Below, piece after piece: positions 8,822 to 31,235 of a stretch of DNA of 32,271 bases. The notes under the pieces were generated by a model. It made no database searches, had not been told where the DNA came from, and saw nothing but the letters and a program-made list of their open reading frames with translations. This DNA comes from Basidiobolus ranarum (lineage: Eukaryota). Position 1 is the stretch's first letter. Each line of letters starts with the position of its first letter. A program made the position numbers and the translations under genes. Where the stretch lies: NCBI GenBank assembly GCA_040143965.1, contig JASJQH010000084.1, forward strand, positions 1-32,271, written 5' to 3'.

Positions 8822-8910
8822 CTAACTCAGACAAGGCTGAAACAAAATATTATTGATTTAATCCACATGGGGTTTTCAGTGGAATAGGTCAATATTGTCA
8901 TCACAGAGAA
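8822..8910 (-). ncRNA. snR41: Box C/D snoRNA, snR41-like; predicted guide for the 18S Gm1126 equivalent (yeast numbering)
   Basis: C box GTGATGA (8904-8898), D' CTGA (8879-8876), D CTGA (8830-8827). The guide GTTTCAGCCTTG is complementary over 12 nt to 18S CAAGGCUGAAAC, and the D+5 rule lands on the first G. Confidence 0.88.
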
Positions 8911-24544: not shown

Positions 24545-25129
24545 TTATTCGAGTTGTTGAGCAGGGAATTCAAAGACAACATCCTTGCCGGTCAATTTTC
24601 TGTAGACAGAGGAGTAGGTATCAAGTTTGTACTCAAGGGAGTTGGTGTCCTTGTTGTCAAGGAAGACCTTGGTGACTTTGGAACCGTCAACCTTGACACG
24701 AGTACGCTTGCCGATGATTTCAGTGGGATAAACAATATCATCTAAAATCTTCTCGTGGACAGCAGTCAAAGTACGAGATCTAGGGCGAGCTTGCTTAGCA
24801 CGAGAGCGACGAGTAGGCTTTCTCATGATGCGACGTTGAGCAATGAAAATGACGTGACGGTCAGAGAACTTCTTCTCAAGTTCACGAGTAAGGCGTTGTT
24901 GAACCTTTTGGAAAGCCTTGAACAAAGGAACTGGAACAAACACAACAATGGCCTTCTTACCACCGCTGACTTCGATTTCTTTGGCAGCGGCAATTTGAAG
25001 AGGACGAAGGTCCTTCTTTAATTCGGCAACGCCGTTTTCTAATTCAACGAGTGCTTGAGCGACCATAAGTTCAAGCTCATCAGCGGGAGCAGCACCGGCA
25101 GATTTAACGATTTTGTTAGCGGCAGACAT
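24545..25129 (-). CDS. RPS7: 40S ribosomal protein eS7, with a 5'UTR intron at 25139-25290
   Basis: MSAANKIVK...[15 protein letters not shown]...[11 protein letters not shown]...[14 protein letters not shown]. The true ATG is at 25129; the ORF track starts at an upstream TTG. Confidence 0.97.
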
Positions 25130-25638
25130 GATGTACAACTATTGAAATAAATGGTCTTTAGTTCTACTAATCCATAAAAATGTGAAGGTGGTTGGCTAAT
25201 CCGTTCAATGTTTTATTTATCCATCCATCTATATATCAATCTATAGCATAGTAAACTGATCACTCTTCAATTACTAAATTGTTGACTTACGCTAAGATCT
25301 ACTCTCGGAAAAGAAGGAAACCTAACTAGGAGCTGCCCTGAGTTTTAACATACGAATCAGCTCCCCATCAAATCAATCTTAATCCAGGTAGCACGTGATT
25401 TAGCGAAATTCACTTCCGATGCTTGCTACATGTGAATCTATCGCGTTTAGCTAGCGCTTAGTTAGCAAATTAAAGTTAACTTCAAATCAATTTATTTGCT
25501 CACTCTATTAAGTATAAATCTCAAACATTAATCGCAGCTGCATGAATGGGGATAATGAGGATAATGCGAAATCTATCCAGGCTCTCCAGATAAAACGAAG
25601 TCGAAATGCCTTAAATTAGCATGCTTTGACTGGCAAAC

Positions 25639-28600
25639 TTAGTTTTTCTTCTTACTCTTCTTAGCCTTGGACTTGACCGCTTCAATGTTGGCCGCAGACA
25701 CCTTTACTTTGCCCAACATTTGAGAGATCATTTCCATATCAGGAATGCTTTTGATAAGTTCTTTCTCGCGGGGAGTGGTATCGTTGGAATGAAGGAAAAA
25801 GTTGATTGCGGCTTTGCAAGCTAGGAAGTTCAGAGATGGTTAGCAAAGTCCAGTTAAACAATCTAAGTGGGATTATTCACTTACCTTTTCCTTTCTTCAT
25901 TGATCCCGGAGTCAATTTGACTCTGTACTTGAATTTTTGTAATGAGGTGTAAGGAGCACATACGGGGACAGCGAAAAGTAGAGTATCATCAGGGAATGGA
26001 CTCCCGGTTAAGGTATCGAGAAGGGTGAGGTTTTCCTAAAAATTTATAGATTGAGTTACATAGTTCGTTAGATGCTACCCAGTTTCTTTACTGACCGCAT
26101 CTTCTCCTTCTATCACAGTGATGTTTTCTTCCTTGAGAAGTTGTCTGATTTCTTCAGCCTCATGCGTATTGGAGGGAATTTGCTAAATGTAACTTTATAT
26201 CAGGAAATTGAGACATCAATGATAGATGGATAATGTTCATTTACCGGCAGATCAATTACATTGTTATCGAGAGTTTCAGTTCCTTCCTTTTCAACAATCA
26301 CATCACTAGTGACATTTGAAGCACTTGATGGCTTCTGGCTTTTACTTTCTTCTTTCTTTGGCTGGCTGACCTTATCGTCCTTGTTCTTATCCTTGCCTTT
26401 ACCCTTCTTTTTCGTAGCTTTAGCAGACTAGATGAAATTCGGTAACATTATCAAAAGATGTTTGAACAATACATACTCGAACCAATTACTTACTCCAAGA
26501 ATAGCCATCTTGAGTTCTCTTTCTTCATCATCTTGATCAGCATATTTCTCTTTCATTTTCTTCATTTTTCCTTTCTTACCCCGTGTAGTGGGTGGAGCAG
26601 GTTGAACAGGTTGAGCTTGCTTCTGCTTTTCTGATTTCTTCTGGGTGGTACGCTCAACCTTTACCGTTTCTTCTGAAGGTTCAGGGGTTGAGGGGGCGCC
26701 CTCCAGTTTCTTCTTTTTTAATTCTCTTCGTTCCTTTGCTGACATATACTTCTTCTTTTCTCCGATCTCTTCAGAGGTTTGAAGTCCTTTGTCTTCCTTT
26801 TCCAATGGAAGTACGAAATCTACATCTTCTCCATGCTCTTCCAGATTATATTTATCAAATGTTTCCACCATATGATCTAATGATGGGCTTTCCGGTTTCG
26901 AGACATCGCTGGTAATGTTGCCTGATTCTTCCCCAATCGACGATTCATCACTTTTTAGGAGAGACGTTGGGTTACTCTCGATTGTACCATTGTCAGAGTG
27001 CTCGACATGGGTTTCAATAGAATCATCAGCAGTGGAGGTTTTCGTTAGATCTTCTTCGGGTTGTGTGAACTCAATTTTATCATCCATGTTTTCAAGGACT
27101 GGCTTACTTAAATCCTTCAGCTCTTCTTGCTCGATTTTTCTTTCAACTACGTGATTACCCACGGAAGAATCATCCAAGCGGAAAGCTATTCCAAATCCAT
27201 ATACCAAGTGGGAGGGTGGCATGAAATTCTTCTTACCACGAATCATGAAACTACCAGTAGTAAGGTATTCACCAGAAGGGGCTGTTTTCGAAACTTGATC
27301 ACCATATACCCACCAGGCACTGGTCACAATCTTGGCATCCCAAGCTTTACTTTGACATACTGACATAATACCAGCCTGGAATAGAGTACTGGGTGGAATT
27401 GGGTCCTCTGTATTCTTATTCTTGACGATTACAGATGCGGCACCGTGAAGATCAGCGTGAACATATATATCCCCTTTCTTAAGATGGCGCTTTACAAGAA
27501 GTTCATTCTGTTGCATATCACGACCCGCGATAACAAGATAGCCCTCTGATGAGATGAACCACTGGAATTTCTCGAACCAAAATGGCTTACGCATTTTATT
27601 AATAGTCGCAGTAATCTTGGTATCCTTCAGATCTTGACGGATCTTCTGCTCAGCACTTTTTAAAGCTTTGGTGGAAGCGGCGATAGTTTTCTCTTGCTTA
27701 GATGCGGAGAATTTCTTAACATCGTAATATTTACGAGCATTGGCAAAGGCGGTGGAGAAAATATCCACATCAACATCCAAAGGTTTAAAAGTCTCCACAT
27801 CTTCGGATTCATCATCTGAAGAATCAAAGAAATCTTCCACTTCTTCAGGATAGCTTAATGACAATGTGATTTGATTCTTTTCCAATTTTAACTTGGAAAT
27901 CTTGATAGCTACAGGATTGTTTTTCTTCTTTTCAAGTTCAACCAGATCTTCTAGCTCTTTCCAGTCCATACCACTGGCAACATAATTCCGGATAACCAGG
28001 ACCGCCTGATCAACGAGTTCCAAGTTCTCTTCAATTAATTGGGCTTTCTTGACGTTAGTCTCTTGTGCGTTTTCAAGCCCCTTGACTCTACTCAGCTGTT
28101 CATTCTTGATGCTTTCCAATTTCTTTAGAGCTGCCTCTTCCTAAACGTAGATGTTCATAATCAATGATATATTCTAGACAAGAGTTAAAAGAATTAACGA
28201 AAGTTACTTGTTGGCGAGCTTTCAAATCGATCTTTTGACTTTCCAAAGCCGAGAAAAATTCATCCACCGCTTTGTCAAAGGAAGAGAATTCACGGTAACT
28301 CTTTGTGGAATGTTGTTCGAATAGGAATGGATGGAACTCCTCGTATCTGTGAATCTCATTTAAGGATGACAATCAAATCAATGGTAACGTCCGATGTAAA
28401 GAATATAATGGTAATAAGGATACGTTTCAAGGACACTTTCCTCCTCTCCATCGTCTTGCTTTGGAGCGCGCATTCCGTTGCCATCGTGCTTTTTTAATAT
28501 AATGTAGCCCTTTTGCTGTCCAGAACCACACAATTCAACCATTTTATCAGCTTTCTGATAGGCCTCGAGCAAGGTATCGAGACGTGGCGAATCTGGTAGA

Positions 28601-29693
28601 TTGAGTAGATTCAGATGAGTCAAGATTCGGCTTCGATTACTTGTCAAGAATATACTAACCTTCGTTCTGGCCAAATTCTGAAGCTACCTTCAAATTTGGA
28701 TCCATCTTAGCCAGAAGAATAATATGCTCAGTTAAGGCAGGTCCATAATCTTAAGTAAAACAGTTTAAATGAATGGTTTTGCATGAAGAAGGAAAGCAAA
28801 ATATATATTACCAAAGCATGCGTTGAGTAACTTCTTTAAAGTATCTTTGGGGCCTGCTTTCTCCACTACTTCACTCAATCTTTCACGATCCATAGAGGTG
28901 AATTCTCGAGCAACAGCCTTTGTATCATATATCTCGCCGACAACCATTCTTACATTTTCATTGGATTGAACCACACGCAATAGTGTCAAGATTTTGTATG
29001 TATGGTCAGTAAGAATGATGTTACCCTGTCAATACCACAATGAAATTTAGTTAATTAGTGTGTAAAAATGAGTCAAGAAGGATACTCACAGAAGCATAAA
29101 ATTCGGCAATGATATGATAACCACCAACTCCATCCTCACTAAAACTAGCAAATTCGAAATCGATAATACGATCCACACCGAGCTGGCGTACGTCTGTAAG
29201 TCGTCGAGCGCGTAAATGTTTACGTAGCTATGGTCGTCAAGTTAATATAGAGAGTACAGAACATGTAGATATATCCTAAAATACCTTCATACAAAACGTT
29301 GATGGAGCAGAGTATTTATCTCGAGCAAATTCGGTTGTATGAATACGGATACCCGATTCGATCAGTAAGTGTTCTTTACGATCAGGCTATGAAAGTAGTG
29401 AGATAGTTTAGTTCATGTAAAAAAGGGTTCTTCCATTTTGAGTTCTTTTAATTAATACAACGTTCATAAAAGAGTACATGAACTGACCTTGGAAAACTTG
29501 AAAAGATAGGTTTTGGAGTTGACATCGTAGCAATTTTGAAGACGAAGACCAACGACCCTTGAAATGTGAATGGATGCATGAATACTCCCAATATCAAGAC
29601 TAAAAAATCCAACATTTTGAAACCTCTAACCCACCTTTCTTTTAAATCAGCTACCGTGGCACGTATATCTAATGCAGAAAATCTCTGTTTCAT
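25639..29693 (-). CDS. RQC2: Ribosome quality control complex subunit 2 (NEMF/Tae2; NFACT domains), multi-exon
   Basis: [135 protein letters not shown]. Confidence 0.96.
28347..28423 (-). other. U12-type (minor spliceosome) GT-AG intron in RQC2/NEMF, 77 nt
   Basis: 5' site |GTATCCTT; branch point TCCTTAA (28366-28360) about 13 nt before CAG|; no polypyrimidine tract. Removal joins VLET^YEEFHPF in frame. Confidence 0.85.
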
Positions 29694-30197
29694 AGTTTAT
29701 TGGAAGGTGGTAAATAATAACGTTGAGTGAACTTCTCAGTGAAAAAATTGAAAATTTAATGCTCTTCTAGAGTACTAAAGATACATCAGATTAGTACAGG
29801 CTGCGGATTTCTGGTAAATAAGCTAGCACCCTGATTACCTAAATCTCAATATGCATCATCAGCTTAGGAAAGATGACGGAATGGATTTTCTTCAGATTAG
29901 ATACACCCAAATTCATGGCTTTAATCCGGACAACACCAATTCCATTGCAATATTCATCGGAAATCTCGAAAAGATACTCTAGCACCTACGAATTGACATT
30001 TACGATTATTAATCATCCACAAGTGAGAATTCATTATGAAATCCCCCATTACTATGAATACAGTAATTTCTCCGTAAAATTAATCATCAAAATTCATTTC
30101 CTAATTTGAAGAATGTTACTATCGCGTATATAAATGCTAAGGAACCCAAAGGTCTCCTGCAAATTCCTTAAAATCTTTATTGAATATACTCTAGATA

Positions 30198-30828
30198 ATG
30201 TCACGTCCATCAATTGTTGGTCCAGAGGTTCCTGTTGAGCCTTTTCCTTTCGAGCTTCAAGGTGAAGTGGTGCGAGGCTTCGGACGTGGTAGCAAGGAGC
30301 TGGGCATTCCTACCGGTATACTTCAATATTCAATAATTTTTTCTTTCTCGAAACCGTTTGAACTCATCGTTGTTTTTACCATTTTTTTAGCCAATCTTCC
30401 TGAAGAAGCAGTTAACTCCATCTGCAGTGAACTTGAAACTGGGGTTTATTATGGCTGGGCTCAAGTACTAAATAAGGAGGTTCGTCCTATGGTCATGAGT
30501 CTTGGTTGGAATCCCTACTACAAAAATGAGAAACGTTCAGCAGTAAGTTTGCTATATTTTTAAGGCTGACCCGAGGTCCTCTGCATATATGTTTATACTA
30601 ATGACTTTCACCTTAATACAATAGGAAATTCACATCATTCATAACTTCGAGTCTGACTTTTATGGAAGTGAACTTAAAGTTGTTGTTACTGGCTACATTC
30701 GACCCGAAAAGGATTATGACTCTCTTGACGCACTGGTTGAAGATATCCGTACTGATATTGAAGTAGCCAAAAATTCCCTCAATAGACCTGGTTATGAAGA
30801 AATCAAGCACCTACCATTTTTCGCATAG
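30198..30828 (+). CDS. FMN1: Riboflavin kinase. Introns 30316-30390 and 30543-30624.
   Basis: [18 protein letters not shown]^[28 protein letters not shown]^[23 protein letters not shown]. Confidence 0.96.
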
Positions 30829-31235
30829 TCATGGGAAGATGTGTTCCTCTTTGCATTTTATATTAAATCCTGTCCCTATATTCACCTATTCTTTTCCATG
30901 TTACCTTGATGTTTTGACACTCGGTCTTGTTTATGCGTGTTCTTGGTACCTCTTACTTTAAATAATGTGTATATTTTGACCTCACAGTAGGGGTTGACTT
31001 TTCATATAAATAGGGCCTAAATCATGTTCCTTTGTATACAAAATACTTCAAGTCAATAAGCAACAATGTTTCATTTCAGTGTTACATATTACTAGATTTT
31101 ATGTGTATCAACAAAGCAATATTGGATATTAAACTCCAGTAATGGTTGCTTTTGTATGCAACTTTGTTTATCATATTTTTTTGTGATGTTTATTTTCTTT
31201 ATCCTAATTATTAACTCTTTCTTTATACATCTGAC

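Follow-up and report, generated by a model that had tools for sequence, protein, structure and literature searches.

A U12-type intron in the RQC2/NEMF gene of Basidiobolus ranarum at a position occupied by major-type introns in the sampled animals and other fungi

Introduction

The RQC2/NEMF gene of Basidiobolus ranarum lies in a stretch of DNA of 32,271 nt, the whole of which is referred to here as the window. One of its 12 introns, the seventh, carries splice signals of the minor class, which raises the questions of whether it is a genuine U12-type intron, whether the organism has the machinery to remove it, and whether its class was kept from an ancestor, acquired later or put to a regulatory use. 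A minor spliceosome in Basidiobolus is expected, as one has already been published for the genus: 249 minor introns (0.554 %) were reported in Basidiobolus meristosporus by Larue and Roy 2023 (PMC10639083) and 237 by Olthof et al. 2024 (PMC11347168), and this species has a minor-intron density among the highest outside Amoebozoa (PMC10639083; PMC11347168). The genus is known for its minor introns, which number a few hundred, the one considered here included. NEMF is not named in the accessible portions of the texts and supplements of these two papers, and the online databases introns.info, FigShare and MIDB may list the orthologous intron. Literature searches combining NEMF with U12 or minor introns returned no paper concerning NEMF among the matches listed.

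The RQC2/NEMF gene and its seventh intron

The gene (Table 1) is single-copy in the assembly, where a second NEMF copy bearing another intron class was sought and none was found. A search with the long exon lying downstream returned a 100 % identical public B. ranarum protein (P0001), followed by the protein of B. meristosporus at 87 %. The domains PF05833, PF05670 and PF11923 (NFACT-N, NFACT-R and NFACT-C) in P0001 identify it as an RQC2/NEMF orthologue, and the closest solved relatives of the product are human NEMF (E 2.3e-235; PDB 9gy4, 3j92) and yeast Rqc2 (PDB 8aaf). The human protein is a full-length orthologue, with Thr269 aligning to Thr281, the residue whose codon is interrupted by intron 7; in contrast, human and mouse NEMF are not among the listed minor-intron genes. 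Threading P0001 onto the window yields 11 introns, the seventh of which has the same ends as those given here (28423-28347). The twelfth and last, a major-type intron at 25884-25821 (minus strand), is missed by the public model, which ends at 1018 aa as a result. Its inclusion gives a protein of 1076 aa, the C-terminal end of which matches B. meristosporus.

Table 1. Coordinates of the RQC2/NEMF gene and of the elements of intron 7 in the window
Feature	Position	Strand	Remarks
RQC2/NEMF gene	25639..29693	minus	13 exons, 12 introns, 1076 aa; 11 introns major-type
U12-type GT-AG intron, RQC2/NEMF intron 7/12	28347..28423	minus	77 nt, phase 2, in Thr281 codon (AC|A)
5' splice site GTATCCTTA	28415..28423	minus	5 pairs with the U11 5' end of its own genome; poor pairing with the U6atac box
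Branch-point region TCATCCTTAAA	28359..28369	minus	ATCCTTA pairs with own U12 (UAAGGAU)
3' splice site CAG	28347..28349	minus	13 nt past TCCTTAA; polypyrimidine tract absent
In-frame TGA within intron 7	28378..28380	minus	if retained, protein truncated at 295/1076 residues
Exon 5' of intron 7	28424..28592	minus	ends ...SVLE + AC
Exon 3' of intron 7	28208..28346	minus	starts with A; ends ...KARQQ

The donor of intron 7, read directly from the sequence, is GTATCCTTA, which matches the minor-type RTATCCTT pattern. The branch site, TCCTTAAA, is located 13 nt from the 3' splice site and fits the TCCTTAAC-like element required at about 10-20 nt, with the branch adenosine probably at 28361 or 28360. 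Pyrimidines make up only 5 of the 13 nt between TCCTTAA and the end of the intron, that is, no polypyrimidine tract is present. Removal of the intron at 28423/28347 restores the peptide ET-YEEFHPF, as found in B. meristosporus and human NEMF, while its retention introduces a stop after residue 295 (codon 296), ahead of the NFACT-R domain. The original prediction of a U12-type intron at 28347..28423, with TCCTTAA about 13 nt from the CAG, no pyrimidine tract and a restored T-YEEFHPF, was exact in these details, and the ends of the public model are identical. Donor, branch site, absent tract, reading frame and the scores given below all fit, and at the level of sequence intron 7 is confirmed as a genuine U12-type intron. 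A donor-like GTGTCCTTG is also present in the exon at window positions 28436-28428 (minus strand), 13 nt 5' of the true donor, and its use would shift the frame.

Strength of the minor-type signal

The combination of a donor with ATCCTT at +3 to +8 and a CCTTRA near the 3' end did not occur in any of 200,000 random sequences generated with the base composition of introns, and an analytic estimate places it at 7e-6 per intron. For comparison with other introns of the same genome, the assembly was scanned with the pattern RTATCCT...TCCTTAA...AS, which gave 212 match rows versus 81 for the reversed pattern, a donor being repeated among the rows whenever several acceptors fit. Sixty regions (L078-L137), 49 canonical-looking and 11 weaker, were hand-picked among the matches listed (100 of the 212) and provided 57 candidates; in 48 of these the reading frame stays open for 45 nt or more on either side. 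These 48 candidate minor introns comprise 31 of the AT-AC and 17 of the GT-AG type, are 60-85 nt long and have their branch site 6-19 nt from the end. The AT-AC share (31/48) is high among these pattern-selected candidates of the organism's own genome, and two regions, L104 and L107, each hold two candidates within about 700 nt.

Scoring matrices were trained on these pattern-selected candidates, so that the scores are partly circular. The donor of intron 7 scores 11.3 on the minor-donor matrix, whereas the remaining introns of the gene, 11 in number, lie between -6.6 and -28.6; the claim that the latter have U2-type donors therefore holds for all 11, which are major-type and score negatively. 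Within the candidate range, the intron 7 donor is low, 13 of the 48 candidates having lower values, and its branch site (10.8, candidate range 9.3-16.7) exceeds only four of them. The total of 22.1 is the top minor-type score of the window and exceeds those of all 30 shuffled windows (maximum 18.9). The base at +9 is an A, a small deviation shared with 9/48 candidates, and the base after TCCTTAA is also an A, as in only one candidate, C being found there in 36/48.

Further minor introns were not recognized in the window, as the next scores, 16.1 and 15.3, fall inside the shuffle range. The motif GTATCCTT recurs at 29085 and was rejected, since it starts at the fifth base of a major-type intron with the donor GTGAGT (29089-29026, minus strand) and a minor branch site is absent.

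Minor spliceosome components of the genome

The original prediction of a working minor spliceosome is matched by the gene content of the assembly, in which U11, U12, U4atac, U6atac and CENATAC were all found. Searches with the Rfam models gave one full-length match for each RNA: U11 at 84.6 bits (Rfam cut-off 39), U6atac at 66.3 bits (cut-off 33), U12 at 49.4 bits (below the cut-off of 53; E 2.9e-7) and U4atac at 46.6 bits (below the cut-off of 53; E 2.1e-5). The position of U12 and U4atac under their cut-offs speaks against the assignment of intron 7 to the minor class. A similar picture was obtained in B. meristosporus, for which Table S7 of PMC11347168, as far as available, lists U11 and U6atac (the latter at K493scaffold_519:39962-40096) with high confidence and two further RNAs as putative. 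That fungus belongs to the same genus and has the same signals, although it is another species, and its NEMF protein has the same ET-YEEFHPF junction. Of the proteins specific to the minor spliceosome, CENATAC (PF14968), encoded in three exons, was detected over its cut-off, as was a PF18036 domain like that of U11/U12-25K.

A TCCCAYA element is located at -62 to -66 upstream of all four minor snRNA genes (L001-L004), and also upstream of 4/4 U6 loci with readable upstream DNA (L142-L145; six were fetched of the 25 U6 matches). Its background frequency is five occurrences on both strands of the window. A TATA-like stretch mostly lies nearer the start of the TCCCAYA-bearing snRNA genes, and the element itself resembles the plant snRNA upstream element. 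U6 has 25 matches in the genome, 18 of them above the Rfam cut-off, and each minor snRNA has one.

The RNAs are also able to pair with each other and with the intron. U4atac and U6atac both deviate from the Rfam consensus yet pair and co-vary, with 13 contiguous base pairs in stem II, seven pairs in stem I and an extra helix at the U6atac 5' end. Duplex folding predicted five pairs between U11 and the intron 7 donor and seven contiguous pairs between U12 and the branch site. In the U12 gene (G000:C7055:8882-9029; L001:1501-1648), a U replaces the A of the Rfam consensus opposite the base that precedes TCCTTAA. That preceding base is an A in intron 7 and in 21/48 candidates (28 % background, p = 0.014), a weak hint that the two positions may have been co-adapted.

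Taken together, the signals and the gene content point to splicing of intron 7 by the minor spliceosome. U11 would read the GTATCCTT donor and U12 the ATCCTTAA branch site; U4atac/U6atac.U5 would join after this recognition, and use of the first AG, 13 nt downstream of the branch site, would restore the NEMF frame.

The variant U6atac box and donor recognition

The U6atac gene (G000:C89:21836-21969; L002:1501-1634) departs from the canonical form in the box that pairs with the donor, which is GUCGA where the consensus is AAGGA. In human cells, suppression assays have shown that donor positions C5 and C6 are paired with U6atac G14 and G15 (in the part of PMC4980772 available). The C at the G14 position leaves donor positions +6 and +7 mismatched, and the best duplex of U6atac with the donor was calculated at -1.8 kcal/mol, versus -5.4 for an AAGGA control. 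The only U6atac found thus cannot pair canonically with +6 and +7, which argues against the minor class of intron 7. A second, canonical copy was detected neither by Rfam search nor by a core pattern allowing two mismatches in the 13,754-contig assembly, which may be incomplete. Candidate introns adapted to the variant box were sought with RTATCGA plus TCCTTAA; the 49 rows obtained (versus 212 for RTATCCT) lacked the tight TCCTTAAC pattern, included some repeats and were rejected by inspection. In the 48 candidate minor introns, +8 is T in 45 cases, although this position was left free by the search pattern. The reversed-pattern control of that scan, at 640, far exceeded the forward count and is probably repeat-derived and unusable, the corresponding RTATCCT control being 81. 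The 10-mer GAGTCGAGAG, which holds the variant box (L002, about 1513-1522), recurs about 90 nt upstream of the U6atac gene (about 1414-1423), possibly by chance.

The divergent box and its poor duplex could indicate that the U6atac gene is decaying and that a minor-looking intron is removed by the major spliceosome or by a hybrid one, and hybrid machinery has been proposed for some fungi (PMC11347168, in the part available). Such a scenario is highly improbable. The donor of intron 7 scores only about -1.7 on a matrix of the gene's own major donors (an approximate value, as one donor was misplaced by one base in the matrix). U6atac retains the AGC triad, stem-loops, T-run terminator and upstream element, and its co-variation with U4atac argues likewise. 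Moreover, 31 of the 48 genome candidates are AT-AC introns with minor signals.

Variant boxes have precedents. A CC variant of U6atac, with [GU]CCGA in place of AAGGA, was described by Davila Lopez et al. 2008 (PMC2396436), who listed it for Trichoplax, cnidarians, a sponge, Acanthamoeba, Physarum, moss and oomycetes, whereas the two fungi named, Rhizopus oryzae and Phycomyces blakesleeanus, have AAGGA. According to the available part of that report, organisms with the CC variant keep canonical minor introns, which is a further point against removal of intron 7 by another machinery. Like the CC variant of PMC2396436, the Basidiobolus U6atac is single, can pair with U4atac, carries a C where the human RNA has G14, retains G15-A16 and is poorly matched to canonical minor donors; unlike it, its box matches [GU]CCGA at 4/5 positions, with U for the first C. 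The U6atac of Trichinella has also been described as diverging around the box (PMC11347168, in the part available). Among the literature found on variant boxes, only PMC2396436 was recovered, and its accessible portion contains no fungal variant. With the GUCGA box, an unexplained observation of 2008 extends to a fungus whose canonical minor donors number in the hundreds. Basidiobolus would be a good system in which to ask whether minor splicing can do without pairing of U6atac to the donor at +6 and +7.

The same position in other lineages

Homologous introns were sought in metagenomes with the pattern Y[DE][DE]FHP[FY]L[FY], which covers the codons just after the splice site. It gave 32 loci, 23 of which are NEMF; the other nine were dropped as chance matches lacking a tblastn hit. 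The sample catches only NEMF genes with that motif, and plants, oomycetes, amoebae, cnidarians and chytrids are not among the organisms identified in it. In 10 of the 23 NEMF loci (nine distinct sequences from about five lineages) the codon in question is interrupted by an intron of the same phase, namely in a Glomerales fungus (L044, donor GTGAGT), three Mortierellaceae (L052, L056 and L060, with GTAAAG, GTATGT and GTAAGC), a bird (L055, GTAATG; junction peptide 98 % to a turaco protein), a fish (L065, GTGTGT), bdelloid rotifers (L039 and L057, GTATTT) and an unplaced eukaryote with two copies (L048/L064, GTTTTT). None of the 10 has an RTATCC donor. On the minor-donor matrix the introns of the fungi and vertebrates, six in all, obtain -5.8 to -21.0, with branch-site scores of 2.0 or less; the other four, from the rotifers and L048/L064, were classed by eye. 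In a further rotifer locus just the acceptor is visible, another locus breaks off at the site, and the site is empty in the remaining 11 (a rotifer-like sequence in five copies, one other rotifer, four unplaced sequences and one intronless record, which is probably transcript-derived).

The coincidence of codon and phase across animals and fungi indicates that the intron position predates the split of these groups. The suggestion that position and class of the NEMF intron be compared between lineages thus gave a divided answer: the position is shared, and the minor class was not seen elsewhere (0/10). The G with which exons usually end before major introns is missing at this site: the base preceding the donor is C in Basidiobolus and in all six fungal and vertebrate homologues, whereas 8 of the 11 major introns in the B. 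ranarum gene follow a G. This is weak evidence for an ancestral minor intron, because the Thr codon constrains that base. The tables of human and mouse minor-intron genes in PMC6717393 contain the controls PTEN and NCBP2 but none of NEMF, LTN1 and TCF25, and a presumed Ensembl identifier of NEMF is not in the available part of Table S8 of PMC11347168. The Arabidopsis orthologue, searched under a presumed locus id, was not found as a minor-intron gene in the literature. On the human side, a clinical variant that we assume to be described as c.807-2A>C would place an intron of NEMF at the same codon (Thr269, phase 2), and this variant was not found in the literature searched.

Two observations concern the sampled loci themselves. 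The bdelloid rotifer-like sequences L036, L039, L057, L059 and L066 vary in intron presence, and where the intron is present, Thr is replaced by Ser and AG precedes the donor. The NEMF of L048/L064 is very AT-rich, with T-rich introns, degenerate donors (GTTTTT, GTCAAC) and best matches of 68-69 % (chytrids).

Origin of the intron class and its possible role

The most plausible reading, to which a probability of roughly 0.7 may be assigned, is that Basidiobolus kept an ancestral minor intron that other lineages converted. The intron would have been minor-type in the animal-fungus ancestor and would still be so in Basidiobolus, with conversion to the major type or deletion in animals and Mucoromycota. 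Class conversion is considered to proceed almost exclusively from minor to major; minor introns favour phases 1 and 2, and conversion is frequent, leaving converted introns with a minor-like bias in phase (PMC10639083 and PMC7367187, in the parts available). As in the conversions described by Moyer et al. 2020 (PMC7367187) and in PMC10639083, orthologous introns of differing class in phase 2 are seen here; unlike in the usual cases, the minor form occurs in one fungal lineage, whereas minor-intron-rich vertebrates carry the major one. The direction of the change is accordingly taken from the general rule and not from an outgroup. Against the retention of an ancestral minor intron stands its absence from all 10 homologues, although vertebrates and Glomeromycota keep many minor introns, and also the larger number of changes required: two or more conversions, versus a single one if the switch took place in Basidiobolus.

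Such a switch, in which an ancestral major intron gained a minor donor and branch signals in the Basidiobolus line, would belong to the processes by which this genus became the richest in minor introns among fungi, and is unlikely. By parsimony alone this one-step history is favoured, as none of the homologues is minor-type. In the accessible text of Larue and Roy (PMC10639083), moreover, the low density inferred for the ancestor of Zoopagomycota is called notable given B. meristosporus, and the L056 donor GTATGT already has the first four bases of a minor donor. However, several coordinated changes at two sites would be required, against the near one-way rule from minor to major (PMC10639083; PMC7367187, both as available), and the sample behind the parsimony argument is small (nine distinct sequences); one of its lineages, the bdelloid rotifers, is the group of Adineta ricciae, a species shown in the minor-intron-loss figure of PMC10639083. 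A related and rather unlikely possibility combines this history with the variant RNA: the Basidiobolus minor spliceosome may have captured an ancestral major NEMF intron, with U6atac bearing GUCGA having given up most of its donor pairing and recognition left to U11 and proteins. If so, a genus rich in minor introns would have become so partly through major-to-minor conversion, against the one-way rule.

The empty site in 11 of the 23 NEMF loci could also be explained by an independent insertion of a new minor intron in Basidiobolus, where others hold a separate major one, and minor-intron gain has been documented in Physarum (PMC10639083, in the part available). This is very unlikely, since the codon and phase match exactly in birds, fish, rotifers and two fungal subphyla, and patchy loss among close rotifer relatives fits one old intron with losses.

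Under the preferred reading of a retained ancestral minor intron, intron 7 would be an ordinary minor intron with no special job; its ancestral class, the direction of conversion and this neutrality are what we infer from the comparisons above. The alternative of a regulatory intron, in which slow or stress-tuned minor splicing sets NEMF output and retained transcripts are degraded, is compatible with either history. It might be suggested by the truncation ahead of NFACT-R upon retention, by a branch site that is weak for this genome (4/48 candidates lower) and by the single copy of NEMF. Nevertheless, it is quite improbable. A stop upon retention is expected of most introns, the minor class is not conserved (0/10 homologues), and NEMF, with LTN1 and TCF25, is missing from the human and mouse tables mentioned above (PMC6717393). 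In addition, work cited in the available part of PMC7367187 found the excision rates of the two classes to differ too little to matter. In Rhizophagus, there is no proliferation-linked rise in minor splicing, and proliferating cells show modestly higher, not lower, minor retention. The further proposal that ribosome quality control is rate-limited by intron 7 is thus unsupported, given the major or absent intron in other lineages, the human and mouse lists and the Rhizophagus data.

The locus is a useful data point in that the intron is minor in this fungus and major in vertebrates, a situation that escapes any orthology table built around human genes. Counting sites of this kind would help to decide between conservative retention and gain of minor introns in Basidiobolus.

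Other features of the window

The flanks of the gene contain what we take to be a riboflavin kinase gene with two major introns (30195-30830, plus strand) and, on the other side, presumably the gene of ribosomal protein eS7 (24545-25138, minus strand), while the contig end (31850-32271) is apparently a remnant of a copia-type retrotransposon. A candidate C/D-box snoRNA resembling Afu_455 is located at 8825-8908 on the minus strand (38 bits, under the cut-off of 48; E 0.0067).
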